Source of the DNA: an uncultured Eubacteriales bacterium
Lineage (GTDB): Bacteria > Bacillota > Clostridia > Oscillospirales > CAG-272
Assembly: GCA_949451655.1 (NCBI GenBank)
Contig: CASTST010000003.1
Coordinates: 1 to 53,317, forward strand
Reading direction: 5' to 3'
Length of the DNA: 53,317 nucleotides
In this document: one piece after another, positions 1 to 52,830 of the stretch
How the letters are laid out: each line of letters starts with the position of its first letter
Position numbering within the stretch: the stretch's first letter is position 1
Notes under the pieces: generated by a model
What the model saw: the letters and a program-made list of their open reading frames with translations, nothing else
Databases searched by the model: none
What the model was told of the DNA's origin: nothing
Position numbers and translations under genes: made by a program

Positions 1-210
1 AGTCACAATCGCTTCGCTTGGCTGTGACAGCCCCCTTTGCACAAGGGGGCCTTTTAACGCAAGTGCTTGCTTCGCGACAGCTCCCTTTACTGGGGGGAGC
101 CTTATGAATTTTGATGCTACGTAACAGCTTCTTTGCTGGGAGGAGGCTTGGGTTTGAATGGCGCTTGACCCTATGAAGCCGTGCGGATCCTCACATGGAG
201 CCTTTTTTGG
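1..210. repeat. Cluster of GC-stem hairpin modules (E-type units of the mosaic intergenic repeat family), cut by the window edge
   Basis: Successive units of the form CGC..GACAG + CYCCC-TTTGCACAA-like loop-GGGRG + CCTTTT, e.g. 28-51 CAGCCCCCTTTGCACAAGGGGGCC. The same module recurs in eight other intergenic clusters. Confidence 0.8.
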
Positions 211-362: not shown

Positions 363-438
363 AGGGGTATAGCTCAGTTGGTAGAGCAGTGGTCTCCAAA
401 ACCACGTGTCCAGAGTTCGAGTCTTTGTGCCCCTGCCA
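363..438 (+). tRNA. tRNA-Trp (anticodon CCA), 76 nt, CCA end encoded
   Basis: Manual cloverleaf fold. Acceptor AGGGGTA/TGCCCCT, D-arm GCTC..GAGC, anticodon stem GTGGT/ACCAC with loop CTCCAAA, T-arm CAGAG-TTCGAGT-CTTTG, discriminator G, then CCA. Confidence 0.95.
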
Positions 439-6333: not shown

Positions 6334-7719
6334 ATGAATCAAGATAAAAATTTTTTAGAAACTGAATCAGTCGGCAAACTGCTGCTGAAGCTGGCACTGC
6401 CCACTGTTGCAGCACAAGTTATCAACATGCTCTATAACATCGTTGACCGTATATATATCGGACACATTGCAGACGTAGGATCCCTTGCACTAACCGGCGT
6501 GGGCGTCTGTATGCCGCTGATTATGATTGTTACTGCATTTTCCGCTTTTGCAGGGTATGGCGGCGCGCCCCGTGCTTCCATTTTCATGGGAAAAGGCGAT
6601 CATATCTCCGCAGAAAAAACGCTTGGAAACTGCTTTGTTCTGCAAATTTTCCTATCCGTTCTTCTGACCGGCGCGCTGCTCCTTTGGAACCGGGATTTGC
6701 TGCTGGCGTTCGGCGCAAGCGAAAACACCATCCCATTCGCTGTAGATTATATGAACATCTACGCACTGGGCACTATTTTTGTCCAGCTTACCTTAGGAAT
6801 GAACGCATTCATCACCGCCCAGGGATTTGCCAAAACCGGCATGCTGTCCGTTTTGATCGGAGCCGCTGCAAACATCATATTAGACCCCATTTTCATATTT
6901 GGTTTGGACATGGGCGTGCGCGGTGCGGCACTTGCAACAGTTCTTTCCCAAACTGCCTCCTGTATATGGGTGCTTCTGTTCCTGTTTGGCAGAAAAACCA
7001 ACCTGCGAATCCGAAAAATCCATCTGCGTCCCCAGGCGGAAATTATTCTTCCAGTATTTGCGCTGGGATCGTCTGTATTTATCATGCAAGCAAGCGAAAG
7101 CATTATATCTGTTTGTTTCAATTCTTCCCTGCTTCGCTATGGTGGAGATATCGCAGTTGGCGCTATGACGATCCTCACCAGCGTTATGCAGTTTGCCATG
7201 CTTCCCCTGCAGGGACTGGGACAGGGCGCACAGCCTATCATCAGTTACAACTACGGCGCCGGCAACAGCGCACGGGTTAAATCTGCATATTGGCTGCTGC
7301 TGCGGGCGGATTTATGCTATTCCACCCTATTGTGGCTTCTTATTATGATCTTTCCCCAAGGCTTTGCCGCCATGTTCACCGCAGATGCAGCACTGATCGC
7401 CTTTACCAAAACCGCACTGCGAATTTATGCAGGGTGCCTCCTTTTGTTCGGCATTCAAATGGCATGCCAAATGACCTTTACTTCCATTGGCTATGCCAAA
7501 GCCTCTATCATCGTAGCGGTAACGAGAAAATTTATTTTACTGATTCCCCTGATTTACATACTGCCCGGTATTTTGCCAATCAGCAAAACAATGGCAGTTT
7601 ACACGGCAGAGCCTGTTGCAGACTTTCTTGCAGTAACCTTTACATCCGTTTTGTTTGTGTTCCAATTCAGAAAAGCTATGAATCAGCTTCCCACCGCACC
7701 GAAAGCGGAGGAAAAATAA
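6334..7719 (+). CDS. MATE family efflux transporter
   Basis: 461 aa with about 12 predicted TM segments. The N-terminus ..LLKLALPTVAAQVINMLYNIVDRIYIGH is typical of MATE/NorM-DinF proteins. Confidence 0.9.
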   Translation: MNQDKNFLETESVGKLLLKLALPTVAAQVINMLYNIVDRIYIGHIADVGSLALTGVGVCMPLIMIVTAFSAFAGYGGAPRASIFMGKGDHISAEKTLGNCFVLQIFLSVLLTGALLLWNRDLLLAFGASENTIPFAVDYMNIYALGTIFVQLTLGMNAFITAQGFAKTGMLSVLIGAAANIILDPIFIFGLDMGVRGAALATVLSQTASCIWVLLFLFGRKTNLRIRKIHLRPQAEIILPVFALGSSVFIMQASESIISVCFNSSLLRYGGDIAVGAMTILTSVMQFAMLPLQGLGQGAQPIISYNYGAGNSARVKSAYWLLLRADLCYSTLLWLLIMIFPQGFAAMFTADAALIAFTKTALRIYAGCLLLFGIQMACQMTFTSIGYAKASIIVAVTRKFILLIPLIYILPGILPISKTMAVYTAEPVADFLAVTFTSVLFVFQFRKAMNQLPTAPKAEEK

Positions 7720-7748
7720 ATATATTACAGAAAGCATGTGGATTATTT

Positions 7749-8465
7749 ATGCATACAATATACGAAACCAAAACAACCAGACAGCGAGAGGCACTGAAAG
7801 ACTTCTTCGGCGGGTTTGAAGGTGAACAAGTCCCGGAAGAGTTATTGGACCGTCTGTTTCAATATGAAGAACTAATGATTAAGTATCGCTCGGCTATCCG
7901 GGAGATTACAACAAAGCTTGAAATTCTGAATGATGAATTATCTTCCTCAACAAAGCAAAATCCCATTGAAAGCATACAGTCCCGGATTAAGCGCCCCCAA
8001 AGCATCGCTGGAAAGCTGCGGCGGCTGCACCAGCCGGTGGCGGTAGAATCTATTGCACGGAATTTAAACGATGTAGCAGGAATTCGTGTAATCTGCCCGT
8101 TCATCAACGATATATACGCAGTGGAAAAAATGCTGCTCCAGCAGGATGATGTGCGTCTGATTGCCCGAAAGGATTATATTCGCAGCCCAAAGGAAAGCGG
8201 ATACCGCAGCCTGCATTTGGTAGTGGAAATTCCCGTATTCTTTTCCATGCGAAAAGAATTTATTCGGGTGGAAATACAGATTCGCACAGTAGCTATGAAT
8301 TTTTGGGCAAGCCTGGAGCATCAGATACGGTACAAAAACGATTCCCCGCAGGTTCAGGAAATTGCAAGTGATCTGAAAGAATGCGCGGATACTATCGCAC
8401 GAACAGATGAAAAAATGCAGGCGCTGCGGCAGCGGATTTTGACCCATACGGAAGAAGTATTATAA
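7749..8465 (+). CDS. Small alarmone synthetase (GTP pyrophosphokinase, RelP/RelQ type)
   Basis: RelA/SpoT synthetase-domain motifs: IQSRIKRPQSIAGKL, DVAGIRVIC, GYRSLHLVVE, VEIQIRTVAMNFWASLEH. The start is set at the first ATG after the MATE stop, giving 238 aa. Confidence 0.85.
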   Translation: MHTIYETKTTRQREALKDFFGGFEGEQVPEELLDRLFQYEELMIKYRSAIREITTKLEILNDELSSSTKQNPIESIQSRIKRPQSIAGKLRRLHQPVAVESIARNLNDVAGIRVICPFINDIYAVEKMLLQQDDVRLIARKDYIRSPKESGYRSLHLVVEIPVFFSMRKEFIRVEIQIRTVAMNFWASLEHQIRYKNDSPQVQEIASDLKECADTIARTDEKMQALRQRILTHTEEVL

Positions 8466-8502
8466 TATGAACTCTTCGGAACAACACTTGCACAAACAAA
8501 AA

Positions 8503-9065
8503 CTCCCGCGGCAAAGGGGTGCCGATGTAATCGGTGGGGGATTGTATACACGAACTGCCGATTTACAGATTATGCAAAATGATAGCAAGGACACTCCCTC
8601 AGTCTCCGCTCCGCGGAGCCAGCCCCCTTTGCACAAGGGGGCCTTTTTGTTTAAATTGGCTTGTGGGACAGCACTCGACACAGCACCACCCAATCATTAA
8701 CCCCTGTGCAAAACTTCAGTTGGCGTAGCTTCTTCCAACTATTAAGCCCCCTTGTGCAAGGGGCAGTCACGCCGCACCATGCCAGACTTAGCCCCCTTGT
8801 GCAAGGGGCGGTCACGCCGCGCCACACCAGACTTAGCCCCCCTTGTGCAAAGGGGGGTGCCGATGTAATCGGCGGGGGGATTGTATACACGAACTGCCGA
8901 TTTGCAGATTATACAAAATGATAGCAAGGACAATCCCTCAGTCGCTCCGCGACAGCTCCCTTTGCACAAGGGAGCCTTTTTGTTTGTACTATACGGAAGT
9001 TCCCTTTGATGGGGGCTTTTTTGTACTTGATTCGTGTTATCTTCCCTATACCGAGGAGGCTTTTT
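8503..9065 (+). repeat. Mosaic repeat cluster: two core elements plus 45-bp tandem A-type units and degenerate E-type hairpins
   Basis: Core copies at 8503-8649 and 8836-8982. Tandem 45-bp units at 8746-8790 and 8791-8835 (GCCCCCTTGTGCAAGGGGC.GTCACGCCGC..). The core architecture is described in the findings. Confidence 0.85.
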
Positions 9066-9136
9066 AAGTTGAAAATAAATTTTATTTCTGCCTTTTGGGT
9101 AAAATAAAAGAAAACGATCCGGGGGGAAAAGACAAA

Positions 9137-9982
9137 ATGCGGGAACGAATTTTATCTGACATTGCAATAAAACGTTTTGAAAAGCATCTGCAAAAGGAAG
9201 AAAAAAGCAAAAATACAATTGAAAAGTATCTGCGGGATGTGCGGGCGTTTATAAGATTTACAGGCAAAAGCAGCATTATCAAGGAAACGGTGATCGCCTA
9301 CAAAACACAGCTGATCCAAAATAACTACGCCGCCCACAGCATCAATTCCATGCTGGCAAGCATCAACAGCCTGTTCTCATTTCTTGGCTGGACGGACTGC
9401 AAGGTGAAATCTATCAAGCTCCAGCGACAAATCTACTGCCCTGAAGAAAAGGAACTGACCAAAGCGGAATATCTACGTCTTGTAAGCACAGCAAATAGCA
9501 GAGGCAACAAACGGCTTGGTCTCATTTTGCAGGCAATCTGCGGCACGGGAATCCGCGTGAGCGAGCTTCCGTTTATCACCGTAGAATCTGTCAAAGCTGG
9601 TGAAGCAGCCGTTTCGCTCAAGGGCAAGATGCGGTCCGTCTTTATTGTGCGAGATCTGCAAAAGAAACTGCTCCGCTATGCAGCAGAGCAGAAAATCAAA
9701 ACAGGATCAATATTTATTACCCGTACCGGCAAACCCATGAGCCGCACAAACATCTGGCGGGAAATGAAAAACCTTTGCATCCAGGCACATGTCAATCCCG
9801 GAAAAGTATTTCCCCATAATCTGCGGCATTTGTTCGCCCGCACCTTTTACGGCATTGAAAAAGATATTGCAAAACTTGCCGACATTCTCGGTCACAGCAG
9901 CATCAATACCACAAGAATCTATATTGTCACCACCGGAAATGAGCACCGCCGCCGCATGGAAAATATGAAGTTGATTTTATGA
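9137..9982 (+). CDS. Tyrosine site-specific recombinase (XerC/D-like integrase family)
   Basis: Catalytic signature GTGIRVSEL (Arg), HNLRHLFA (His-x-x-Arg), GHSSINTTRIY (His ... Tyr). An N-terminal SAM-like domain is present. The start is chosen at the ATG preceded by GGGGGGAAAAG; the ORF track alternative is 9095. Confidence 0.85.
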   Translation: MRERILSDIAIKRFEKHLQKEEKSKNTIEKYLRDVRAFIRFTGKSSIIKETVIAYKTQLIQNNYAAHSINSMLASINSLFSFLGWTDCKVKSIKLQRQIYCPEEKELTKAEYLRLVSTANSRGNKRLGLILQAICGTGIRVSELPFITVESVKAGEAAVSLKGKMRSVFIVRDLQKKLLRYAAEQKIKTGSIFITRTGKPMSRTNIWREMKNLCIQAHVNPGKVFPHNLRHLFARTFYGIEKDIAKLADILGHSSINTTRIYIVTTGNEHRRRMENMKLIL

Positions 9983-20646: not shown

Positions 20647-23600
20647 ATGAAGAACCAAAAGCTAATGAAAGTTTTAGCAGCGAGTTTAGCTGTCCTTATG
20701 CTGGTTGGTTTTCTTCCGATTTTTGCATTCAGTGCATCGGTGGATTACGTAACCGGAAACGACGACTATTACAAAGTGATCTCAAAAAATGACTGGGATC
20801 TTGCTCCAGGCATTGTTGAATCTGAAATTGTTCTGAACAATGATATCTCCACACGCCGTCAGGTGGCGCATGTGGTGGAAGTAGATATCAACAACCCATA
20901 CACAAAGGTCATCCCCAGCAGCAAGGGCATGACACCGACTCCCGGCAACTATGGAGTACAGATCATGTCCCAGCAGGCAAAGTATGCAGAGGAACACGGC
21001 TACGGCAATGTTGTAGCCGCAATGAATCTGAGCCTCAGCTGGTATAATAGCTCATATTATGTAGAACATCCTGAGCTTGTAGGCGAACCGCTCGGATATA
21101 TGGTTCTGGATGGCAAAATGTATGTCAACAGCCAGGGTCAGACAAGCGGAGCACAGACCTGTGTAGTCATCAACTTTGATGAAAAGGACGGCGAGGCAAG
21201 ACCCTCCGACATGCCCAAGGTAGAAATCCGTTCCACTGCAACTGCCATCACCGGCTGGGAAGAACAGGTAATTCCTGCAAACTTCGGATTCCTTGTCAAA
21301 GACGGAAAAAATCTCTACAGCGAGGACCACGACTCCGACAGCGCATCCCGTTCCTTTGTGGGAATCAAAGAGGATGGAACCTTCGTAATGGTTATGAACG
21401 ATGGACGCCAGTCTCCGTATTCCGCAGGCTTTAACAGCTATGAGATGGCGGAATTCATGCTTTCTCTTGGCTGCGTAACAGCGGTTAACGGCGACGGCGG
21501 CGGATCCTCAACATTCCTGTCCCAGCGTCCCGGTGAGGATCTGAAAATCAACTGTTCTCCTTCAGACGGGTCAGAGCGTCCTACAACGCATGGTATTCTG
21601 GTAATTTCCACAGCCCCTGCAACAGGAGAGTTTGTACGTGCCAGCATTTCTGCTGAAAACGAATATTTTACTCCCGGCAGCACAGTGAAATTCAACGCTG
21701 TAGGTACTGACCTTGTAGGTACTGCTGCTGAAATTCCGGCTGATGTTACATGGCAGCTTGCTGATCCCTCAATGGGAACAATAAGCGACGGAATATTCAT
21801 TTCTAACGGGAAGACAGGAACAGCAACTGCACAAATGGTATGGAATGGAGAGATAGTTGGTGAAGCGTCTGTTCAAATTGTAATTCCCGAAGCTATATCA
21901 TTTGCCCAGGATGTGATTACAGTTCCTTTCGGTAAGGAAATTACTATCAATCTCAAAGCTACTATTAACGGTGGACTGAATGATGTTGTTTTGAAGGAAA
22001 GCGATATAGAGCTTACTCTTGATAACAGCGCATTGGGTACACTTGACGGCTTTAAGTTTACAGCTGTAAACGAAGAAGCAGCACCCGAAAGCTTAAGCGG
22101 CATACTGAATGCAGCTTTGCTTCATGGCGAAGGATTGAAAGCAACGGCTAAACTTAGCCTTGGAAAAGGTTCCAAAATTCTTTATGACTTTGAGGACGGG
22201 GATGCCTCACAGTGGGCTTATTATCCGAACTCCAAATATAACTATATTGAATATGAAGGTTCCACCTCCCTTGCAACAAGAGAAGACGGACAGGTTCACA
22301 GCGGCAATTATGCGTTGCGTTTGAATACTGATTTTTCTGTTACAACTGAAAGCGGTTATCTTTGCGGTTATGTTGGCTTGACAGGAAATGAAAGAATCGA
22401 TTTGAAAGACGCCACTCGAATCGGAATGTGGATATATTTCCCGCATGAAGCAGCTGGACTCAGATGTCATCTACGTGTGGAACCTGTTACAGAAAGAGAT
22501 GCTGACGGAAATATAGTAAAAACTGGCGGCAAGTATAATTCACAATCCATTTTGGACGGAGACAAAGACTGCGGAACTCCCGGTTTTGTTACTTCATTCC
22601 CAGAATCCGGTTGGCATTATGTTTCATTTGATTTGACACAGCTTGGTGATTTGGGCGGATGCATTCCTGCTAATGCAACAATACTTCAATATTATCTTTG
22701 TGACCGCGATGGTGCAAAGTATAATTACAGTCACTTTGACTATAAGTCCTTGATTCAGAACCTTACAATGTACATTGACGATGTAACAATTGACTATTCG
22801 TCTGTTGTTGATGATCGTGAAGCACCCATATTCAGCAGTGTACTTCTCAGCGATAATGGAAGCAATTCGGACGAGCCTATGTCTCTTAATAACGGTTATG
22901 TTTCCAATATGAGTGAGCTTTCCCTCGCTGCACGGGTTGCAGAAAATACAACAAATGCGAACGCTACAGGTATTGACGCTTCTACTGCAAAAGCATATGT
23001 AGATGGAACTGAAGTTGCATGCAAATATACAAATGGTCTAATGACCATTGACACTAAAGATTTTTCAAACGGATCTCATACCATTAAGTTCACAATATGT
23101 GACAGACAAGGGAACTATGCTTCTGCCATTCGCACATTTACAGTCAGTGCAGAAAATAATGACAGATCTACTGTAAAGCTTGTTCCTCATGATGCAGCAC
23201 TTGATAAAATTCTGTTTGGATCTCTTTACTATGTTGATCTGGTGGCAACAGACATAGAGACTGTGCAATCTGTTTCGGTAGACCTCGATCTTAACGATAT
23301 CAGCATTTGGCAGCTTGATCATATGGAGGCGGCTGAGGGCTTTGAAGCATCCTATAGTATCATTGATTCTGACGACAATATTGCAAGAGTAACAATTACA
23401 CGCACAGGAGAAAGTGACGCTACCGGTGAATATTCGGTAGTTTCAATGCCTATCCGCACATGGGAGCTTCCTGCAGTTGAATCTGATTACAATCCTGCCG
23501 GCGTAGTGAGAATGTATGATCAGTATAAAAAGACGAACGAAATATGGCCTGTAGATATTAGTGTAACCGTTAAAGCTGGTACAGTTTTCTTTAACGATGG

Positions 23601-25395
23601 TACAAATAACACTTTTGCCGGCGACAATGTACAAGTTGATACAGAATCCTATGTATGGCACGATCAAAATCCCAAGCCCGATGGATACGCTGTGTGGAAT
23701 GGCGGTCATGATCATAGAGCAGAAACAAAGCAGTACTATGGTGAAGAAACGACTAACCATACAGATGCAGTAGCACTCCCTGATGCTGCAGCTACCTGCA
23801 CAAAGGACGGATACACAGGAAGAACCTACTGTAACGAATGCAAGTCCGTTGTTGACTGGGGCACAACCGTTCCGGCAACCGGACATAGCTTCGTAACTGA
23901 AGGCAATATCAAAATATGTACTGCATGTAATAAATCATACAGTGCTGACGGTCTCACCGGCTGGCAGGTGCTTGCAGGCGAGAACTATTACTTTGGAAGC
24001 TACAGCGAAGTAGTAGACGGTCAATATACTGTAGACGGTCATACCTACACCTTTGCAAACAGCAAGCTTATTGACGGCGCATGGGAAAATGACGGCGTTG
24101 GTCTCACATGCTGGTGGGCAGGAGAACAGCTCTTCAACCGTTGGTTCAAGATTGGAGACAATACCTATCACTTTACCGGTATTTACGCAGATACTGGATT
24201 CAGCCGTATTGCGATCAATACAAATGTTGGATCAAGATATCATATGTTTGATGAACACGGTGTGTTCTGTGATGACTTTAACGGTATTTATATCTTTAAT
24301 AACAATACTTATTACTTGAAAGACGGTATTGCCAATGTCCATGGTCTCGTAGAATACGACGGCGATTACTACTACATCAACAGCAGTTATGTCGCAATCA
24401 AAAATACCGGATATCGTCTTACCGATTCTATGACAAACGGCTTGCTCCCTGCCGGAACATACTATTTCGACGCAGACTGCAAGATGATTCAAATGAAAAA
24501 CGGAATCGTCACAGAGGATAATGGAGATATTCGTTACTACGTGAATGATGTACCCCAATACGCCGGACTTGTTCAGGATAACGCCGGAAATTACTACTAT
24601 ATCAACAGCACCCTGAAGGCTGTAAAGAATACCGCTTACACAATCAGCGCTGCGAAAACAAACGGGCTCCTTCCTGCCGGAACATATAAATTCGGTGCGG
24701 ACGGCAAGATGATTCAGGCGAAAAACGGAATTGTCAAAGACGATAACGGAGACGTTCGTTACTATGTAAATGATGTACCCCAATATGCCGGACTTGTTCA
24801 GGACAGCGACGGAAGCTACTACTATATCAACAGCTCCCTGAAAGCTGTAAGAAATACCGCTTACACTATTGGTACTGCGAAAACAAACGGGCTCCTTCCT
24901 GCCGGAACGTACAATTTCGGTGCGGATGGTAAGATGATCCAGGCGAAAAACGGTCTTGTCAAAGACGATAACGGGGATATCCGCTATTACGTAGATAATA
25001 AGCCCCAATATGCCGGACTTGTTCAGGACGATGCCGGAAATTACTACTACATCAACAGCACCTTGAAGGCTATAAAGAATACTGCCTACACAATCGGCGC
25101 TGCGAAAACAAACGGACTCCTTCCTGCCGGAACATATAATTTTGGTGCGGACGGCAAGATGATCCGGGTGAAAAACGGTCTTGTCAAAGATGATAACGGG
25201 GATATCCGCTATTACATAGATAATAAGCCCCAATATATCGGACTTGTTCAGGACGATGACGGAAACTACTACTATATTAACAGCACCTTGAAGGCTGTAC
25301 GTGGTTCCTCCTATACCATTGGCGCTGCAAAAACAAACGGCCTCCTCCCCGCCGGAACATACCATTTCGGTGCGGACGGAAAAATGATTCCATAA
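20647..25395 (+). CDS. 1582-aa secreted multidomain protein: phosphodiester glycosidase (DUF2233/NAGPA-like) domain, Ig-like and CBM-like domains, Cys-rich segment, C-terminal 75-aa wall-binding-type repeats
   Basis: Signal peptide MKNQKLMKVLAASLAVLMLVGFLPIFAFSA. Segment VGIKEDGTFVMVMNDGRQSPYSAGFNSYEMAEFMLSLGCVTAVNGDGGGSSTF resembles the phosphodiester glycosidase family. CxxC pairs occur around CNECKS..CTACNKS. The C-terminus has about 4.6 repeats. RBS AAAGGAG. Confidence 0.75.
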   Translation: MKNQKLMKVLAASLAVLMLVGFLPIFAFSASVDYVTGNDDYYKVISKNDWDLAPGIVESEIVLNNDISTRRQVAHVVEVDINNPYTKVIPSSKGMTPTPGNYGVQIMSQQAKYAEEHGYGNVVAAMNLSLSWYNSSYYVEHPELVGEPLGYMVLDGKMYVNSQGQTSGAQTCVVINFDEKDGEARPSDMPKVEIRSTATAITGWEEQVIPANFGFLVKDGKNLYSEDHDSDSASRSFVGIKEDGTFVMVMNDGRQSPYSAGFNSYEMAEFMLSLGCVTAVNGDGGGSSTFLSQRPGEDLKINCSPSDGSERPTTHGILVISTAPATGEFVRASISAENEYFTPGSTVKFNAVGTDLVGTAAEIPADVTWQLADPSMGTISDGIFISNGKTGTATAQMVWNGEIVGEASVQIVIPEAISFAQDVITVPFGKEITINLKATINGGLNDVVLKESDIELTLDNSALGTLDGFKFTAVNEEAAPESLSGILNAALLHGEGLKATAKLSLGKGSKILYDFEDGDASQWAYYPNSKYNYIEYEGSTSLATREDGQVHSGNYALRLNTDFSVTTESGYLCGYVGLTGNERIDLKDATRIGMWIYFPHEAAGLRCHLRVEPVTERDADGNIVKTGGKYNSQSILDGDKDCGTPGFVTSFPESGWHYVSFDLTQLGDLGGCIPANATILQYYLCDRDGAKYNYSHFDYKSLIQNLTMYIDDVTIDYSSVVDDREAPIFSSVLLSDNGSNSDEPMSLNNGYVSNMSELSLAARVAENTTNANATGIDASTAKAYVDGTEVACKYTNGLMTIDTKDFSNGSHTIKFTICDRQGNYASAIRTFTVSAENNDRSTVKLVPHDAALDKILFGSLYYVDLVATDIETVQSVSVDLDLNDISIWQLDHMEAAEGFEASYSIIDSDDNIARVTITRTGESDATGEYSVVSMPIRTWELPAVESDYNPAGVVRMYDQYKKTNEIWPVDISVTVKAGTVFFNDGTNNTFAGDNVQVDTESYVWHDQNPKPDGYAVWNGGHDHRAETKQYYGEETTNHTDAVALPDAAATCTKDGYTGRTYCNECKSVVDWGTTVPATGHSFVTEGNIKICTACNKSYSADGLTGWQVLAGENYYFGSYSEVVDGQYTVDGHTYTFANSKLIDGAWENDGVGLTCWWAGEQLFNRWFKIGDNTYHFTGIYADTGFSRIAINTNVGSRYHMFDEHGVFCDDFNGIYIFNNNTYYLKDGIANVHGLVEYDGDYYYINSSYVAIKNTGYRLTDSMTNGLLPAGTYYFDADCKMIQMKNGIVTEDNGDIRYYVNDVPQYAGLVQDNAGNYYYINSTLKAVKNTAYTISAAKTNGLLPAGTYKFGADGKMIQAKNGIVKDDNGDVRYYVNDVPQYAGLVQDSDGSYYYINSSLKAVRNTAYTIGTAKTNGLLPAGTYNFGADGKMIQAKNGLVKDDNGDIRYYVDNKPQYAGLVQDDAGNYYYINSTLKAIKNTAYTIGAAKTNGLLPAGTYNFGADGKMIRVKNGLVKDDNGDIRYYIDNKPQYIGLVQDDDGNYYYINSTLKAVRGSSYTIGAAKTNGLLPAGTYHFGADGKMIP
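24367..25392 (+). repeat. In-frame tandem repeat, period 225 bp (75 aa), about 4.6 copies
   Basis: TAC TAC TA(C/T) ATC AAC AGC recurs at 24367, 24592 and 24817, and by the 225-bp period the two further YYYINS units fall at about 25042 and 25267. The protein unit is YYYINS.LKA.KNTAYTI.AAKTNGLLPAGTY.FGADGKMIQAKNG.VKDDNGD.RYYV...PQYAGLVQD..G. Confidence 0.9.
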
Positions 25396-25406
25396 AATCA
25401 TAAAAT

Positions 25407-25462
25407 GCCCGGTCATCTGACCGGGCAGCCGCACAAATCAGAACCTCCACGCGGTGTGCGGC
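25407..25462 (+). terminator. Two GC-rich hairpins after the large secreted-protein gene (weak or partial terminator, no T-run)
   Basis: GCCCGGTC-ATCT-GACCGGGC (25407-25426), then CCGCACA ... TGTGCGG ending about 25462. Neither is followed by a U-tract. Confidence 0.3.
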
Positions 25463-25522
25463 GGGCAACGGAAAGATCCGGCAAACTCTGATAACCATAA
25501 TTTATTATGGGAGATATAAACT

Positions 25523-33894: not shown

Positions 33895-34255
33895 AAAAAA
33901 GCCCCCGGCAAAGGAAACTCCCACGATAGCATCAAACTAAAAAGGCCCCCTTGTGCAAAGGGGGCTCCCGCGTTAGCGGGTGGGGGATTGTTTTGCTATC
34001 ATTTTGCAGCATCTTCAAATCGGCAGTATAACTTAAACAATCCCTCCGTCTCACCTACGGTGAGCCACCTCCCTTTGCACAAGGGAGGCTTTAAAAGTTT
34101 GTGTGCTGCGGCGAACCAGCCCCCTTTGCACAAGGGGGCCTTTCTTTTTAGTTTTGGTGCTATCACAGGATACCTCAGGAGTTCGCTTTGCGGTCTCCAA
34201 CACAAGGTTTTGATGCTATCGCAGGAGTTCCCTCTGCTAAGGGAGGCTTTTTCAG
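33895..34255 (-). repeat. Mosaic repeat cluster with one core element in minus orientation plus flanking E-type hairpins
   Basis: Core at 33938-34090, with the central motif read on the minus strand: ACTGCCGATTTGAAGATGCTGCAAAATGATAGCA. Extra hairpins lie at about 34118-34150 and 34225-34255. Confidence 0.85.
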
Positions 34256-37589: not shown

Positions 37590-38015
37590 TGCAAAAGGGT
37601 GGTGGCACGCCGTAATCTCTCCACCCCAATCAAGCTCTCTGTACAAGGGAAAGCAATCACGCCGCACCACACCTGACTAAGCCTGTCCAATATGAAAAGC
37701 CCCTCCCGTGCTGGAACCGCATAACGTATATCTAAAGTCCCCTTGTGCAAAGGGGGGTGCCGATGTAATCGGCGGGGGGATTGTCTGCACATGTTGCCGA
37801 TTTACTGATCCTGCGAAATGATCGTATGACAATCCCCCACCCGCTAATGCGGGAGCCCCCTTTGCACAAGGGGGCCTTTTTATTTAGGATATTGCAGGAG
37901 CTTCCTTTGCACATGGGGGGCTTTTATTTAGGATATCGCGGGAGCCCCCTTTACACATGGGAGCCTTTTTATTTAGGATATCGCAGGAGCTTCCTTTGCT
38001 GGGTGGTCTTATTAG
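37590..38015 (+). repeat. Mosaic repeat cluster: degenerate A-type units, one core element, three tandem ~46-bp D+E units
   Basis: Core at 37737-37882. Tandem units TAGGATATCGC(R)GGAGC-YYCCTTTGCACATGGG-GCCTTTTATT lie at about 37884-37928, 37929-37975 and 37976-38014. Confidence 0.85.
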
Positions 38016-39606: not shown

Positions 39607-40311
39607 ATGGAACAGATTTATACAATACCGGTAAACGAGGCGTTTGAAGCAGGGCAGCAGGATCCGACCCTGGGATGTCCTTTTTGCCGCCTGCGGGAAA
39701 AATTATGTAAAGAGGAAATCGAACGGGTGCTTGGTGCGGCAATGATGGAACCGGACACCCGTAAAGAAACCAACGAACACGGTTTTTGTGCCCGTCATAT
39801 GGATCAGATGTTGTCTGCCGGCAAGCGGCTGCCATTAGCACTGATTCTGGAAAGTCACCTTACTGAAATCGCGGATGCTATGAAAAAGCCCGGATTGATG
39901 CCTGCCGTCTCCGGTGCAGATGCGGCGAAAAAACTGGGGAATATGGCGGATGACTGCTATGTATGCAGCCGGGTGGAGTTTCATTTTACGCATATGTTGG
40001 AAACAGCGGCGCTGCTTTGGGAAACCGATGGAACATTCCGCGAAAAGTGCCTGTTCCAGCCGTATTTTTGCCTGCCACATTTTGCCCGTTTTCTGAAAGC
40101 CGCGCGGGAGCGGATGAAGGGAAAAGAGTACGGTGCGTTTTACAAACAGATTCACGAAAAAGAGGCGACATTTTTGGAGAAACTCGGCACAGACGTTAGT
40201 TGGTTTGTTAAAAAGTTTGACTACCGGTATGCGGACGAGCCGTGGAACGACGCGAAAGATGCAATCGAACGTGCGGCTGCCTTTTTGAACGGAAACGAGG
40301 GAACGATATAA
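39607..40311 (+). CDS. Conserved hypothetical cysteine-rich protein (possible metal-binding)
   Basis: Paired Cys/His motifs CPFC, GFCARH, CYVC, CLPHF. I make no firm family assignment from memory. Confidence 0.5.
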   Translation: MEQIYTIPVNEAFEAGQQDPTLGCPFCRLREKLCKEEIERVLGAAMMEPDTRKETNEHGFCARHMDQMLSAGKRLPLALILESHLTEIADAMKKPGLMPAVSGADAAKKLGNMADDCYVCSRVEFHFTHMLETAALLWETDGTFREKCLFQPYFCLPHFARFLKAARERMKGKEYGAFYKQIHEKEATFLEKLGTDVSWFVKKFDYRYADEPWNDAKDAIERAAAFLNGNEGTI

Positions 40312-40389
40312 AATACCGAAGAATTTGTTCTGTAGCTATTTTACCATAAACCAGAGAAAAAGCAAGGACATTTTCGCACCAAAAAATAC

Positions 40390-40930
40390 CTGCGATGGCT
40401 CCCTTTGGTGGGGGAGCCTACCAATCTATACCCTGAGCCTCCCCAGTGAAGGAGTTTGCTTTGCAGCCTCCCGGGGAGGTAGCGCGGCGCATCCCCTCTA
40501 ATGAAAGCCTCCCCTGTGCAAGGGGAGGTGGGTTTTGCGCAGCAAAACTCGGAGGGGTTGTCTTACTACACATACTGCCGATTTATTGATCCTGAAATAT
40601 GATCGTATAACAATCCCTCACCCGCTACGCGGGAGCTCCCTTTGCCGGAGGAGTTTACCAATCTATACCCTAAGCCTCCCCAGTGAAGGAGTTTGCTTTG
40701 CAGCCTCCCGGGGAGGTAGCGCGGCGCATCCCCTCTAATGAAAGCCTCCCCTGTGCAAGGGGAGGTGGGTTTTGCGCAGCAAAACTCGGAGGGGTTGGCA
40801 CATACTATCGATTTTTAACTCCTGTAAAATGACTGTATTACAATCCCTCAGTCGCTTCGCGACAGCTCCCTTTGCCGGGGGGAGCCTTTTATTTGGAAGA
40901 CTTCGCGGGAGCCCCTTTGCCGGGGCACCC
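40390..40930 (+). repeat. Mosaic repeat cluster containing a 237-bp tandem duplication, each copy carrying a core element
   Basis: Units at 40397-40633 and 40634-40870. Core copies at 40507-40655 and 40744-40893. One more E-type hairpin lies at about 40900-40935. Confidence 0.85.
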
Positions 40931-40932
40931 TT

Positions 40933-43900
40933 TTATGTGCAATTGGGCACAGAAATACAATCTCCAAGTGCCAGAGAATACAAATACACCTCGTCAAAAG
41001 GACGACCCAGCATATCCGCACAAAGTTCCCTGTAAAGATTGATCTGCCGCATATGTCTTGACAGCAGCTTATCTGCCGCAAGGGCAGGATTTTCTTTTTC
41101 CTCTGCCGTCAGCCGATCCGTTTTATAGTCGAGCAGTACGGCTCGTCCTTGTTCATCTATAAACATACAGTCAACAACACCCTGTACGGTAATATCTGTT
41201 CCGGACGCTGCAAGCTTGTCACGAAGCACCGGATCCGTTGTGAATCGGGAGGCAGGAAGCACCGCGTTGAATCGGAACTCCCGATACATCTCCCGGGCGC
41301 ACACCATTCTTTCAAATATAGACGTTCGGGTGAAGGCTGTAATTTCCTCCAGCCGCACCAGTTCCGCCTGCTCCTTCGTCAAAAACGCCTGCTCCTGCAA
41401 TAGCGTCAGTTCCGCATCCGCTCCTGTTTCACGCAGCCTGCTGTAATCGCAAAACTGCATATACAAGTGGGTCGCAATACCAGCTTGCGCAGCAGTAGCT
41501 TTACCGGGCTTTGACAGAAATGCAGGCATGGGAATCACCGTGTCCGTCTCCCGCTTTGCCGGAGGCGTTGGATCAATGGTGATTGTCTCCGGTTCCTGCT
41601 GGTTGAGTATATCCGGCTGCAAGGCAGACACAGTAAGCTTTGCAGGAATGTTTGCCAGATGCTCCAGAGGGTACGCAAAGGAAAACCGCTGCCGGAAAGT
41701 TTCCCGCCACACATTCTGCTCCTCGGATGACACCTGCATTCTGTCGTTTTCCGTCCGAACTGCGTCTGTACAAGCCCTCTCATTTTCACCAATCACAAAC
41801 CGGAAGCATCCGGCGTTCATATGCCGTACTGCACCGTCTATGATCCACTGTCCCAGACAATTACAGGAAAGAATTTCATAAACATCCGCCGGATGCGCCG
41901 ACCGTGCATGCGCCTGTTCCAGAACTTTCTCCGGCTCCGTCGCCATGCAGGTAATATACAGCCGCTCTCTTGGGCGGGTCAGCGCCACATACAGCACCCG
42001 CATCTCCTCCTGAATCATCCGTTCCTGCAAGCTTTTGGCCGCGGAACATCGCAGAGGCGTGTCGCACCGGACAAGTCCGCCCGGGTCATACAGCTTCACG
42101 CAGGGACCGCTATCCGGGCAAAACAGCACCCGGTCCGACAGCCCTCTCACATTGAATTTCCGTGCCGTATCCGAAAGAAAGCATATAGGATATTCCAATC
42201 CCTTTGAACGGTGAATCGTGGTTATCGTCACTGCATCCTCTGCAGGAAGCTGCCCGCCTCCGTCCTTTTGCTCCATCAAACCGTTCAGAAGCCGGATAAA
42301 ATCGTGGAGTCCGCCGCCTTGTCTGCCGCACCCTACCGCATGGGACGTAAGCAGCTTCAGAGAACGCCGGATCTGGGTGTTGCTTCGTTTATCATCGCCG
42401 CGGTAATATAAAAATCCAGTATCTCGGACAATCGTCTGCAAAATCTCATCTGCACGCATATATCGGGCGTGCGCCCGCCAATCCTCCACCTGCTCTGCAA
42501 ATGCGGCGCATCGGGTTCCAAGGGGAGTGGCACATGCGGCAGTACGCTGCACGCTGTACCACAGCGGTCCCTTTTCCGTCCCCCGGATATTTACTAAATC
42601 ATCCAATGTAAATCCAAAGAGAGGGCTTTTCATCGCGCCCGCCAGATAGATATCCCGCAGGGGGTTATCGACTGTATTCAACAGGCACAGCATTAAAATC
42701 ACTTCACTGCAGGCAAAAAACGGATCCGCCGCACTGTTTGCCGCTGCAATGCCCCGCCGTGCCAATGCGTCTGCATACGCTGCCGCTTGCCTGCCGGAAC
42801 GCAGCAGAATTGCAATATCCCCCGGGCGCACCGGCGATCCGTCAGACAGGGTTTCACCCTGCAAAAGCGCATGAATCCGTCCGGCAACATATTCTGCCTC
42901 CGCATTTGCAGGAGCGGCTTCTTCGTCATCCTCCGGCGCAGGAATCAGACAGATTTCAACCGGAGCAGAGTCCCCGGACTTTGTACATATTAGTTCATCC
43001 TTCTCATCAAAGGGAGTATCCCCAGCCGCAAACATATATCTGGAAATCAGGTTGGCAAAATCAATTACTGCGCGCCGGGAACGAAAATTTTCCTGCATGA
43101 ATATCGCCTGTCCGCCGTCTCCCGCTTCATAACTGGTTCGGTAATAGGTAAACACCTCGGGACATGCTCCGCGGAATCCGTAAATCGACTGCTTCACATC
43201 CCCGACCATAAACCGGCGGCTGCCGGCAGACACCGCGGAAAACACCTGATCCTGTATACGGTTGGTATCCTGATACTCGTCGATAAAAATATAATCAAAC
43301 TGCCGCCCTGTCTCTATTGCCGCAGGAGTTGGCGCACCTGTATCTGTGCAGAAAATCCTGTTTGCGTATACCTCCAAATCAGCAAAATCTATGCGTCCCA
43401 GTTCCTGCTTTTTTTCCGTATACCGTTTCTCAAAATCTGAAAGCACCCGCGCCGCAGCCCGTACAATCGCGGCATTTTGCTCCATCAATCTTGCCATTTT
43501 CTCTGGATCAGGCAGAAAAAAGAGCCGCCGCAAGCTTTTGATTTCATCACCGAATTCCTGACGGGCTTCTTTAAACTGCACATATTCCTCCGTCTGTTTT
43601 TCTGCCTTCAGCGGAGACAGACGCGGCTGTGTAAAAGTTTCCATCCAAGATCGGACTGCTTCATAGCTATGATCTGCCAAACCGGTCAGTTCTCCGGCAA
43701 GCCGAGCAGATTCCAAAGCCAACGCGCTGTATTTTTCCGTATCAGCGCACGCAGACAATGCAAAAGAAAGCCGTTCAAAAATCTGACGGAAATGCTGTCC
43801 CGCGCGCTGCATCTGCCGGCGGATCGGCACACCGAATACAGACGCAAGAAAATCTCCCGTGCCCGCCTGGGTTTCTTCTGCCCACCGGTACAAACCAGCA

Positions 43901-44519: not shown

Positions 44520-44905
44520 TTTAGCTTCTCCTTTACAGGGAGACTTGTGAAGTTTCACTCCCTTTGTCGGGGAAGACTTTACGTAGCCCATATCTCCCTG
44601 TGCAAGAGAATGTGGTACGCCGCTGATACTACACAAAAGAAAGTAGCTCGCTGCCGATACTATAATACTTATGCCCCCTTGTACAAAAGGAGGTGGGCTC
44701 GCTGTCGACACTATAATACTTATGCCCCCCTTGTGCAAAGGGGGGGTGTCGCGATAGCGACGGGGGGATTGTGTATAATACTGCCGATTTGCAGATCCTG
44801 CAAAATGATAACATGACAATCCCTCACCCGCTTCGCGGGAGCTCCCTTTGCACAAGGGAGCCTTTTATGGTTTGAGGTTGACCGCTAGTGCCCTTTGATG
44901 GGGGG
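44520..44905 (+). repeat. Mosaic repeat cluster located between addB and addA
   Basis: Tandem A-type units of about 53 bp at 44643-44695 and 44696-44748. A core element lies at 44724-44867 on the plus strand, antisense to the add genes. Further degenerate hairpins are present. Confidence 0.85.
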
Positions 44906-49626: not shown

Positions 49627-49674
49627 CGATAAGGATGCCCTTGTTAGGATTTGCTGCGCAGTTTACTCACTATC

Positions 49675-49925
49675 AAAAGCCTCTTTAATGTAAAGGGAGG
49701 TGGTATGCCGTTAGCTCTCTCCAACGAAAGCCTCCCCCCGGCAAAGGGAGGTGGCACAGTTTTGCTGTGACTGAGGGATTGTTTATACTATACTACCAAT
49801 TCACAGTTCATGCAAAATGATAGTATTACAATCCCCCACCCGCTTCGCGGGATGCCCCCTTTGCACATGGAGCCTTTAGGGGATTTTGCTCTGCGACAAC
49901 ACCCTTTGCTAAGGGACCTTTTCAT
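49675..49925 (+). repeat. Mosaic repeat cluster with one core element
   Basis: A-type unit at about 49676-49729, core at 49730-49877, trailing E-type hairpin at about 49890-49925. Confidence 0.85.
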
Positions 49926-49993: not shown

Positions 49994-50404
49994 CTAACCC
50001 GTAATTTCTACAGGAGCAGTGCCGCCCACACCATTATTTACATTCAGACCGAAACTAACAGTAATTGCCTCGTCTACAGCCTGCATCATATGATCGTCCA
50101 AATGCCCCATTTTTTCCTTCAGCCTGCGCTTGTCAATGGTACGAATCTGCTCCAGCAGAACCACTGAATCCCGCTGCAAACCTACCTTTTCCGCATACAC
50201 ATCAATATGCGTGGGCAATCTGGTTTTGCCAAGTTTGCTGGTAATCGCGGCAGCAATCACAGTAGGACTGTATTTATTTCCCACATCATTCTGCACAATC
50301 AATACAGGGCGCAATCCCCCCTGCTCGCTGCCCACTACCGGGCTAAGATCTGCATAATATATATCACCGCGTTTGACTGTCACGTTATCACTCTCCGTTA
50401 TCAT
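49994..50404 (-). CDS. mazF: MazF/PemK-family endoribonuclease toxin (EndoA-like)
   Basis: [47 protein letters not shown] ... LPTHI ... [17 protein letters not shown] is nearly collinear with B. subtilis EndoA (NdoA) as I recall it. A C-terminal extension of about 20 aa is present. An alternative GTG start lies at 50383. Confidence 0.9.
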
Positions 50405-52254: not shown

Positions 52255-52830
52255 ACAAAAAAGCCTCCCCCAGTGGCATACCGCAAAGCATCCAACTTAA
52301 AAAGCCCCCTTGTGCAAAGGGGAGTAGCATAACGTTTGCTCTTCGCCAATCAAAAGCCTCCCTTGTGTAAAGGGAGGTGGCATACCGTTAGGTATGTCGG
52401 AGGGATTGTATAAACATATTGCCGATTGAATGATCCTGCAAAATGATAGTAGAAACAATCCCTCACCCGCTCCGCGGGAGCTCCCTTTACACAAGGGAGC
52501 CTCTTCTAAAATCAAGCCCCCTGTGCAAGGGAAGGCGGCACGCCGTAAGCCCTCACCAACGAAAAGCCTCCTTTGTGCAAAAGGAGGTGGCACGCCGTAA
52601 GCCCCCACCAACGAAAGGCCTCCCTTGTGTAAAGGGAGATGGCATACCGTTAGGTATGTCGGAGGGATTGTTTATACTGTACTACCGATTCGAAGCTCAT
52701 GCAAAATGATAGCACAACACACAACAATCCCCCAGTCTCCACTGCGTGGAGCCAGCCCCCTTTGCACAAGGGGGCCTTTTTATGTGGGTACTGCGCGAGA
52801 ACTCCCTTTGCTGGGGACCTTTTAGCTTGT
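52255..52830 (+). repeat. Mosaic repeat cluster: two core elements separated and preceded by ~53-bp tandem A-type units
   Basis: Cores at 52356-52503 and 52617-52781. A-type units such as CAACGAAAAGCCTCCTTTGTGCAAAAGGAGGTGGCACGCCGTAAGCCCCCAC lie at about 52556-52608. Confidence 0.85.

Follow-up and report, generated by a model that had tools for sequence, protein, structure and literature searches.

A mosaic family of palindromic intergenic repeats, probably of the REP/BIME/BOX kind, in a lineage of uncultured gut Clostridia

The contig CASTST010000003.1 (assembly GCA_949451655.1) comes from an uncultured bacterium of the Eubacteriales (GTDB group CAG-272). The stretch of 53,317 nucleotides analysed here, in the following called the window, contains an element of about 145-165 bp in ten copies, with hairpins that differ in sequence between copies and yet stay paired. 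This raises the question of whether the element acts as a structured RNA or is a repeat of the DNA itself. A sequence-only reading of the window had left both possibilities side by side, proposing a structured RNA or an element of MITE or BIME type. It pointed to the covariation of the stems and noted that nine of the ten copies have the orientation of the gene they follow.

The ten stretches listed in that reading can be aligned end to end with a mean column identity of 69%. For the core, which comprises stem C and its loop, a profile HMM trained on copies from outside the window delivered exactly ten matches within the window, and alignment and HMM together confirm the ten cores in position and orientation (Table 1). 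The pattern GGGATTGT-N25-45-AAATGA-N6-20-ACAATCCC was found seven times in the window versus 0 times in 100 dinucleotide-preserving shuffles. By means of an HMM for the arms, 27 arms or partial arms were detected in the window, some of them solo. Sub-modules of the A type and of the D+E type are present in tandem, as had been described, with spacings of 45, 44-45, 51 and 52 nt in the families D11, D2, D9 and D10, respectively. The 237-nt tandem duplication at elements 5 and 6 comprises the positions 40398-40560 and 40635-40797. Elsewhere in the window, a comparison with Rfam at the gathering threshold revealed a tRNA and an HDV-F-prausnitzii ribozyme.

Table 1. Full elements, sub-modules and solo hairpins of the repeat in the window (positions in nt)
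Position	Strand	Feature	Repeat family
1-200		right arm (7-49) of an element truncated by the window start, followed by D+E-type sub-modules	D2
8503-8649	+	full element 1: arm, core 8538-8598, arm; directly after the RelA_SpoT-domain gene	
8745-8834	+	two tandem 45-nt A-type sub-modules (hairpin A and half hairpin)	D11, 91% identical
8836-8982	+	full element 2, core 8877-8937; degenerate E-type hairpins downstream to about 9065	
33938-34090	-	full element 3, core 33984-34044; only core on the minus strand	
34105-34143		additional solo E-type terminal hairpin with T-run	D5
37737-37882	+	full element 4, core 37777-37836	
37849-37999	+	three tandem D+E-type sub-modules, spacing 44-45 nt	D2
40507-40655	+	full element 5, core 40554-40617; first unit of the 237-nt tandem duplication	D7
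40744-40893	+	full element 6, core 40794-40847	
44646-44744	+	two tandem 51-nt A-type sub-modules	D9
44724-44867	+	full element 7, core 44765-44823; between addA and addB, antisense to both	
49669-49877	+	A-type sub-module 49669-49738 and full element 8 (49730-49877, core 49775-49835)	D6, D10
52297-52830	+	array: A-type module, elements 9 and 10 with two 52-nt A-type modules between them, D+E-type module	
52356-52503	+	full element 9, core 52402-52462	
52617-52781	+	full element 10, core 52664-52731	

The element consists of a core of conserved sequence between two inverted arms, each with two GC-rich hairpins. From the outside inwards, an arm is composed of a terminal hairpin with the loop TTGTGCAAA (hairpin A or E), a second hairpin (B or D) and one half of stem C. 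Hairpins A, D and E as well as stem C were recovered by RNAalifold and hairpin B once the arms were aligned in register, which bears out the architecture of five parts given in the sequence-only reading. Its statement that hairpins A and E are inverted copies of each other holds as well. The core is formed by a stem of 8-10 bp, GGGATTGT/ACAATCCC, in its fuller form a long-range pairing of GGGGGATTGT with ACAATCCCYC, which is almost invariant across copies and encloses a loop of about 45 nt. In this loop two conserved blocks, CGATTT and AAAATGAT, are placed about two helical turns apart. The loop itself is near-palindromic: its left half, ATACTGCCGATTTGCAGA, matches ATACTATCATTTTGCAGA, the reverse complement of the right half, at 14 of 18 positions. 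The four differences between the halves (G·T, C·A, G·T and A·A) are fixed, and therefore the core has an orientation.

Four sub-types of the arms can be distinguished (AGGT..CGGA, AGCT..CTGA, GGGT..CGGG and GGCT..CTGG). Each of them is found on both sides of the core, with a preference of only about two to one. Hairpins B and D are therefore one module that occurs in two arms. The repertoire of this second hairpin includes GCCGAT/ATCGGC, GGGTTTTGC/GCAAAACTC, CCCGC/GCGGG and GTCGC/GCGAC, together with a series G(G/T)C-NNNNN..NNNNN-GAC in which the five variable positions stay complementary. In some copies the loop of the second hairpin is flipped, with AAA versus TTT on the same stem, and some carry an extra hairpin nested within the loop of the terminal hairpin. 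On each side, the outermost hairpin is followed by a T-run, reading outward. The outer flanks have an A-rich consensus ...AAAG(C/G)C, mirrored by ...G(C/G)CTTTT, in which no foot motif of the GTAG type was found. Solo arms exist apart from full elements. In two more distant MAGs (L076 and L019) the arms are kept and the loop is different, so the arms predate the core.

For the analysis of covariation, 55 distinct arms of equal length were compared with shuffles and with slid partner columns as controls. In the arm hairpins 95.9% of the cells are paired, compared to 81.3% in shuffles, and changes on both sides were observed in ten of 16 pairs (127 cells). The observed values were reached by 0 of 500 shuffles, and pairing fell to 43-54% when the partner was slid by 1-3 columns. 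The variation of hairpins B and D under maintained pairing, reported from the ten copies, is thus seen in the larger set as well. For stem C, which is conserved in sequence, there is no variation and hence no covariation signal. The imperfect inner hairpin of the loop is paired in 90.2% of the cells versus 90.7% in shuffles, with a double change in one pair. The arms are conserved as structure and the core as sequence, and this inverse pattern merits the attention of specialists. The earlier conclusion from covariation to selection on structure can be kept for the arms, not for stem C and the loop and not in the sense of an RNA function. The covariation of the arms is symmetric between the strands. 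It therefore speaks for selection (or a copying mechanism) in favour of palindromy and is no demonstration of a function as RNA.

A functional RNA should prefer one orientation. The co-orientation of nine of the ten cores with the upstream gene is correct for the window, but it is no general property: among 113 cores with two neighbours called by a crude longest-ORF caller, 30 lie in sense and 28 in antisense orientation between tandem genes, 42 in convergent gaps and 13 in divergent gaps. In these statistics the 28 cores matched by nhmmer on both strands were counted once. The ratio of 30:28 is random, and therefore a strand-specific RNA is not supported. Relative to the majority coding strand of the locus, taken as a proxy for the leading strand, the orientations of the cores are 85:77, and 31:35 in loci with a strong coding-strand bias. 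G-U pairs are tolerated only by RNA or by a single strand of DNA. They occur 255 times on the mRNA-sense strand versus 244 times on the antisense strand. The folding energy of the core is -14.49 versus -14.52 kcal/mol on the two strands, and 70 cores fold better on one strand, 74 on the other. Together with flanks of 60 nt every copy is highly stable, with a mean of about -75 kcal/mol. The comparison of the whole window with Rfam at E<=5 gave no match on the elements, and at E<=10 the region 8400-9100 showed only far-sub-threshold chance matches. The palindromy belongs to the duplex as such, or else both strands make use of it, and the reading as a strand-specific structured RNA is not supported.

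The elements avoid ORFs and prefer the 3' ends of genes, especially convergent gaps. In the sampled loci, an element is present in 37 of 74 convergent, 47 of 275 tandem and 11 of 80 divergent gaps. The terminal hairpins carry the motif of a Rho-independent terminator, a GC-rich stem-loop directly followed by a T-run. On the plus strand this is hairpin E, on the minus strand the complement of hairpin A, and the T-runs point outward. Whichever side a transcript comes from, it therefore passes through the element and reaches a canonical terminator motif at the far end. A scan of the region 33.5-53.3 kb found 69 terminator-like sites versus 22 expected, and every one of the ten best, which are spread over both strands, is the terminal hairpin of an element. 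An example is presented with the RelA_SpoT-domain gene (7290-8465), where element 1 begins 38 nt past the stop codon and no other terminator exists. In an orthologous pair of loci, the gene is followed by an ordinary terminator in L003 and by an array of elements instead in L056. Judged from these motifs and positions, the elements probably supply many of the terminators of this organism. Element 8 is located in a convergent gap adjoining a PemK-family gene, and this gene has a private terminator that lies before the array; an element is therefore not always the sole stop signal. In assembled metatranscriptome contigs, from which transcript ends are not readable, pieces of the element are joined to other sequence, which hints weakly at co-transcription with the neighbouring genes.

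DNA nearly identical to the window is present in rat and mouse gut metagenomes. A scan for the core pattern in one genome per GTDB species matched at least 85 stretches. Among the matches listed, almost all belong to three MAGs (CANPFW01, CANTEM01 and CATLAS01), which are labelled as uncultured Clostridia or Eubacteriales. Two further MAGs, of which one bears the label Oscillospiraceae, were listed with a single copy each, and the few unrelated matches among those listed look like chance. Where they overlap, the window and the CANPFW01 contigs are about 88% identical, and a sister species is thus the source of the window. In the window and about 0.62 Mb of related loci (about 0.67 Mb together) we counted at least 163 unique cores, all outside long ORFs. 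With ten cores in 53 kb, the window itself has a density of one element in every 5 kb or so. Compared to the flanking single-copy genes, the elements have a 75-140-fold word depth in a rat-gut metagenome, so that each genome is estimated to carry roughly a hundred copies or more. The same sample series also yielded a short IMG/VR contig with one copy. The high copy number is confined to one lineage.

The comparison of strains with identical flanking proteins showed how the elements vary. The number of the 45-nt sub-modules ranges from 0 to 3 among strains. Whole elements are gained or lost by recombination between direct copies: one locus (L090) lacks 262 nt that are present in the window, and another (L106) lacks the 237-nt duplication. 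Arrays grow and shrink via tandem slippage or unequal recombination of the 44-52-nt sub-modules and of whole elements. Up to position 40641, inside element 5, the locus L086 agrees with the window at 99.9% identity, and from there it continues into an island with DUF5131, NUDIX and WYL genes. L107 and L109 share an identical AddA protein and an identical element 6 and diverge into other genes exactly after the terminal (outer) hairpin of this element. Synteny between strains thus breaks either inside elements or at their ends. In a comparison across species, L013 carries its orthologous copy as the reverse complement of the one in L085. Copies at the same locus are 82-85% identical versus 96-97% in the flanks, and the stems of their second hairpins are different yet still paired. 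Close strains showed one orientation of the core per locus in all comparisons, and no strand-switch joints were detected in metagenome contigs. Recombination and gene conversion among copies explain the differences between strains and species as well as the random orientation of the cores. No clean pair of an empty and a filled site was found among the loci compared, and all polymorphism seen is explicable by recombination.

These results have to be weighed against several other explanations. A strand-specific structured RNA, that is, a multi-copy small RNA or a cis-acting element of 3'-UTRs with a functional fold of five helices, would account for the strong covariation of the arm hairpins, the very stable fold of every copy and the occurrence of element pieces in metatranscriptome contigs. 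It would also fit the co-orientation of nine window copies with their upstream genes, which is lost in the wider sample. We regard this explanation as very unlikely, considering that G-U pairs and folding energies are symmetric between the strands, that stem C and the loop show no covariation, that the arm types swap sides, that an orthologous copy is inverted between species, that Rfam holds no match and that promoter-like matches inside the element are weak and inconsistent. With its terminal inverted repeats, its small size, its high copy number and its non-coding, intergenic nature, the element resembles a classical MITE, the deletion derivative of an IS with a DDE transposase which is mobilised in trans through these repeats. 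However, a target duplication should show as an excess of direct 2-8-mers, and 92 elements gave no such excess at any offset beyond the inverted repeats. The only direct-repeat signal lay inside the inverted repeats and is a correlation of arm types, not a duplication. Moreover, no longer, autonomous form was found, and the sequences inward of solo arms are mutually unrelated. In the sampled loci there was no transposase ORF: a self-BLAST of all ORFs of the window and the related loci gave no multi-copy ORF, and a Pfam scan detected no transposase among ten genes bracketed by elements, where the genes that could be identified are housekeeping genes, among them those for MnmE, HPr kinase and UDP-galactopyranose mutase. 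A mosaic with independently amplified sub-modules and solo arms is atypical of MITEs as well, and an origin of this type is unlikely.

The conservation of the core as sequence and not as structure, with the CGATTT and AAAATGAT blocks about two helical turns apart, raises the possibility of dispersed binding sites. The near-symmetric core (ATACTGCCGATTTGCAGA / TCTGCAAAATGATAGTAT) would then serve a dimeric DNA-binding or nucleoid-associated protein as its operator, with the arms as no more than a vehicle, and dyad symmetry would explain the indifference to orientation. A parallel is the IHF site in the RIP and RIB BIMEs of E. coli or in the Correia elements of Neisseria. No known motif was recognised in the core, the arms are older than the core judging from the MAGs that keep them around a different loop, and recognition by a transposase could also underlie the conservation; binding sites seem quite unlikely to us. 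Least credible is the proposal that the core is a small invertible promoter segment, which a site-specific recombinase would flip at the inverted GGGATTGT/ACAATCCC repeats. It would make use of the perfect inverted repeats which bound the core, of the variable orientation of the core relative to arm type and genes, of the inverted orthologous copy and of a tyrosine recombinase gene adjoining the first array. But the synapses of known invertases need a segment far longer than about 45 bp, only two of ten loops reach 9/12 promoter matches, close strains share one orientation at each locus without strand-switch joints in contigs, and the recombinase gene, which keeps its syntenic place in the related species, has the look of an Xer-type housekeeping gene. 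We thus consider such inversion extremely improbable. The reverse strand of some loops reads TTTGCA-N18-TATAGT, and this promoter candidate was rejected, with a score of 9/12 in two of ten loops and an unconserved last position of the -10 box. Integron attC sites, Xer/dif sites and DNA-uptake sequences were also considered and rejected in view of the random orientation, the housekeeping nature of the intervening genes and the lack of a matching core-site architecture.

We therefore come back to the reading that we consider likely, a lineage-specific, mosaic family of palindromic DNA repeats similar to REP, BIME, REPIN and BOX elements, which acts at the level of DNA and on transcripts of either strand and is not a strand-specific RNA gene. 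Such an element, selfish or domesticated, would provide stop signals for transcription in both directions and hot spots of recombination. From the alternatives given in the sequence-only reading, this retains the mosaic BIME- or BOX-like element; the structured RNA is not supported, and neither is the classical MITE, for which a target duplication and, in the sampled loci, a parent IS were sought in vain. With the REP, BIME and REPIN elements it shares high-copy extragenic palindromic units, an inverted doublet around a spacer that forms a long hairpin, the occurrence as singlets, doublets and mosaic clusters, the absence of a target duplication and a location mostly after genes. REPs have a role in the stabilisation of mRNA 3' ends and in termination, and in Proteobacteria the REP, BIME and REPIN elements are mobilised by RAYT transposases (IS200-like, Y1/HUH), single-copy enzymes which recognise the hairpins. 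For REPINs, a symmetric organisation with compensatory changes was reported, and such changes are common in them too (PMC3116915). In contrast to these elements, the family described here belongs to an uncultured lineage of Clostridia and not to a proteobacterium, has no recognised sequence similarity to them, carries two hairpins per arm where a REP has one short unit, and lacks a GTAG-type foot motif. The spacer is the part most conserved in sequence here and the least conserved part of REPINs. In the sampled sequence (the window and about 0.62 Mb) no RAYT gene was found, and a phmmer search of the same loci for an IS200-like TnpA, to be taken as a lead only, had no hit.

The BOX elements of Streptococcus pneumoniae (boxA-boxB(n)-boxC) are likewise modular and intergenic, with sub-modules of about 45 nt that are repeated independently and a strong potential for secondary structure, and we know of no transposase for them. 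However, BOX modules are ordered and co-oriented, whereas the arms described here are inverted copies around a distinct core, and no relationship in sequence was recognised. The mosaic nature of BIME and BOX elements is found again in the tandem 44-52-nt modules, their strain-variable number and the solo arms. Correia or NEMIS elements of Neisseria correspond in size (about 100-155 bp), in terminal inverted repeats around a central conserved site (for IHF in Correia), in hundreds of copies per genome, in co-transcription with neighbours and in terminator activity, reported or predicted. They differ by a TA target duplication and a transposon-like source, in contrast to the missing target duplication here. 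Clostridia are generally without IHF. The bcr1 repeats of the Bacillus cereus group are also intergenic repeats of Firmicutes with about 150 bp, a strong folding potential, restriction to a lineage and variability between strains, but are not related in sequence. They are characterised by a defined target duplication and an orientation-dependent expression. In the sequence-only reading the family had not been recognised as a named one, and our literature search found no description of it: there was no occurrence of the exact hairpin sequence and nothing relevant on repeats of Faecalibacterium or Clostridia. By sequence it belongs to none of the families compared, and the most fitting description is that of a new family within a familiar kind of bacterial repeats.

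How such a repeat might be maintained and spread can be outlined from its anatomy. The elements may be tolerated or kept as bidirectional terminators and stabilisers of 3' ends. They would spread via an enzyme that recognises hairpins and leaves no target duplication, for instance an HUH/RAYT-like transposase or another structure-specific recombinase, which may be encoded once elsewhere in the genome and for which the sequence-conserved core would be the recognition site. Recombination and gene conversion between copies would then shuffle the arm types, flip cores and rearrange the genome. We tentatively prefer a spread similar to that of the REPIN-RAYT system, since the family shows no duplication, depends on hairpins and is organised as a symmetric doublet with compensatory changes. 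Going further, it is conceivable, if doubtful, that the element is the non-autonomous half of a new REPIN-like replicator system of Firmicutes, with the core as recognition and cleavage site of a structure-specific recombinase, or that the cores form a genome-wide set of operators for a dimeric DNA-binding protein. A recombinase which copies, flips and exchanges hairpin cassettes would explain the shared repertoire of arm hairpins, the nested hairpins, the flip-flop loops and the synteny breaks at the ends of elements.

To our knowledge, studies of REP, BIME, REPIN, BOX and Correia-type repeats have dealt almost exclusively with Proteobacteria, Neisseria and streptococci. The findings extend the REP-type phenomenon to a lineage of uncultured Clostridia of the rodent gut where it was previously undescribed. 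In kind the result is no surprise, and noteworthy are the cassette-like repertoire of hairpins with nested and flipped forms, the density of the elements and their coincidence with synteny breaks between strains. For work on these genomes it is useful in annotation and assembly: the elements break metagenome assemblies, in which contigs end in them at a depth of about 100-fold. As they mimic structured RNAs in covariation screens, they also present a cautionary case for the discovery of RNAs by covariation. The elements mark the sites where strains differ in gene order, and the split between a core conserved as sequence and arms conserved as structure offers a clean point of departure in the search for the enzyme or protein by which the elements are recognised.

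A strain represented by the locus L086 follows the window at 99.9% identity as far as the middle of element 5 (window 40641), from where a block of DUF5131, NUDIX and WYL genes (L086 3705-6705) takes the place of addA and the second element. It represents an island or rearrangement specific to that strain, with its junction within the repeat. Around element 6, window 40311-40933 was compared with three related loci (L107 5511-5892, L109 12058-12427 and L110 11859-11980). The AddA protein is identical among several strains, yet the genes that follow it differ (DUF3842/DUF436/MBOAT and others), and the outer hairpin of element 6 is the exact point at which they diverge. In one strain (L106 12770-13474), gene calling splits the DUF6062 gene (window 39607-40311) into two ORFs, of 105 and 123 aa; this split, adjoining the repeat array, probably reflects a frameshift or a pseudogene. 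An insertion of 134 nt in another locus (L085 2446-2580, compared with its orthologue L013) is GC-rich and self-complementary and has no relation to the repeat family studied here.

Among the protein genes beside the arrays, the tyrosine recombinase gene lies directly 3′ of the first repeat array, an arrangement whose synteny is kept in a sister species (L030), and it looks like a housekeeping gene of the Xer type. The exact sequence of the PemK-family protein recurs in 45 public-collection blocks, among them another species-level MAG (CATLAS01); this conservation is unusually strong when set against that of its neighbours. Two non-coding RNA genes were detected in the window. The ribozyme starts 33 nt 3′ of an ORF of 1582 aa (20647-25395), which carries four tandem repeats of 225 nt toward its 3′ end (24360-25407). 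The tRNA gene immediately follows the truncated repeat array with which the window begins.

Genes in the window and examples of nested terminal hairpins in related loci
Feature	Locus	Position	Strand	Basis or size
HDV-like self-cleaving ribozyme, F. prausnitzii type	window	25428-25492	+	RF02682, 45.4 bits (gathering score 44)
tRNA gene	window	363-435	+	62.9 bits
Tyrosine recombinase	window	9095-9982	+	Domain content: Phage_integrase, SAM-like N-terminal domain
PemK-family toxin-like gene	window	49994-50404	-	136 aa
Nested terminal-hairpin variant	L086	3990-4040
Nested terminal-hairpin variant	L012	290-330
Nested terminal-hairpin variant	L003	3385-3430

The arms and the GGGATTGT/ACAATCCC stem are the same in two more distant MAGs, Oscillospiraceae SIG495 (L076 144-223) and CAZCQZ01 (L019 1653-1725), which carry a different loop sequence. 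The arm design therefore predates the core present in the window and is also more widely distributed. In variant terminal hairpins, an extra hairpin is nested within the TTTGCACAA loop, as in CCCT-AGGATCCGCTATGCGGCTCCAG-CACAAGGG; this points to insertion of hairpin cassettes into the loops of hairpins, or to their outgrowth from such loops.
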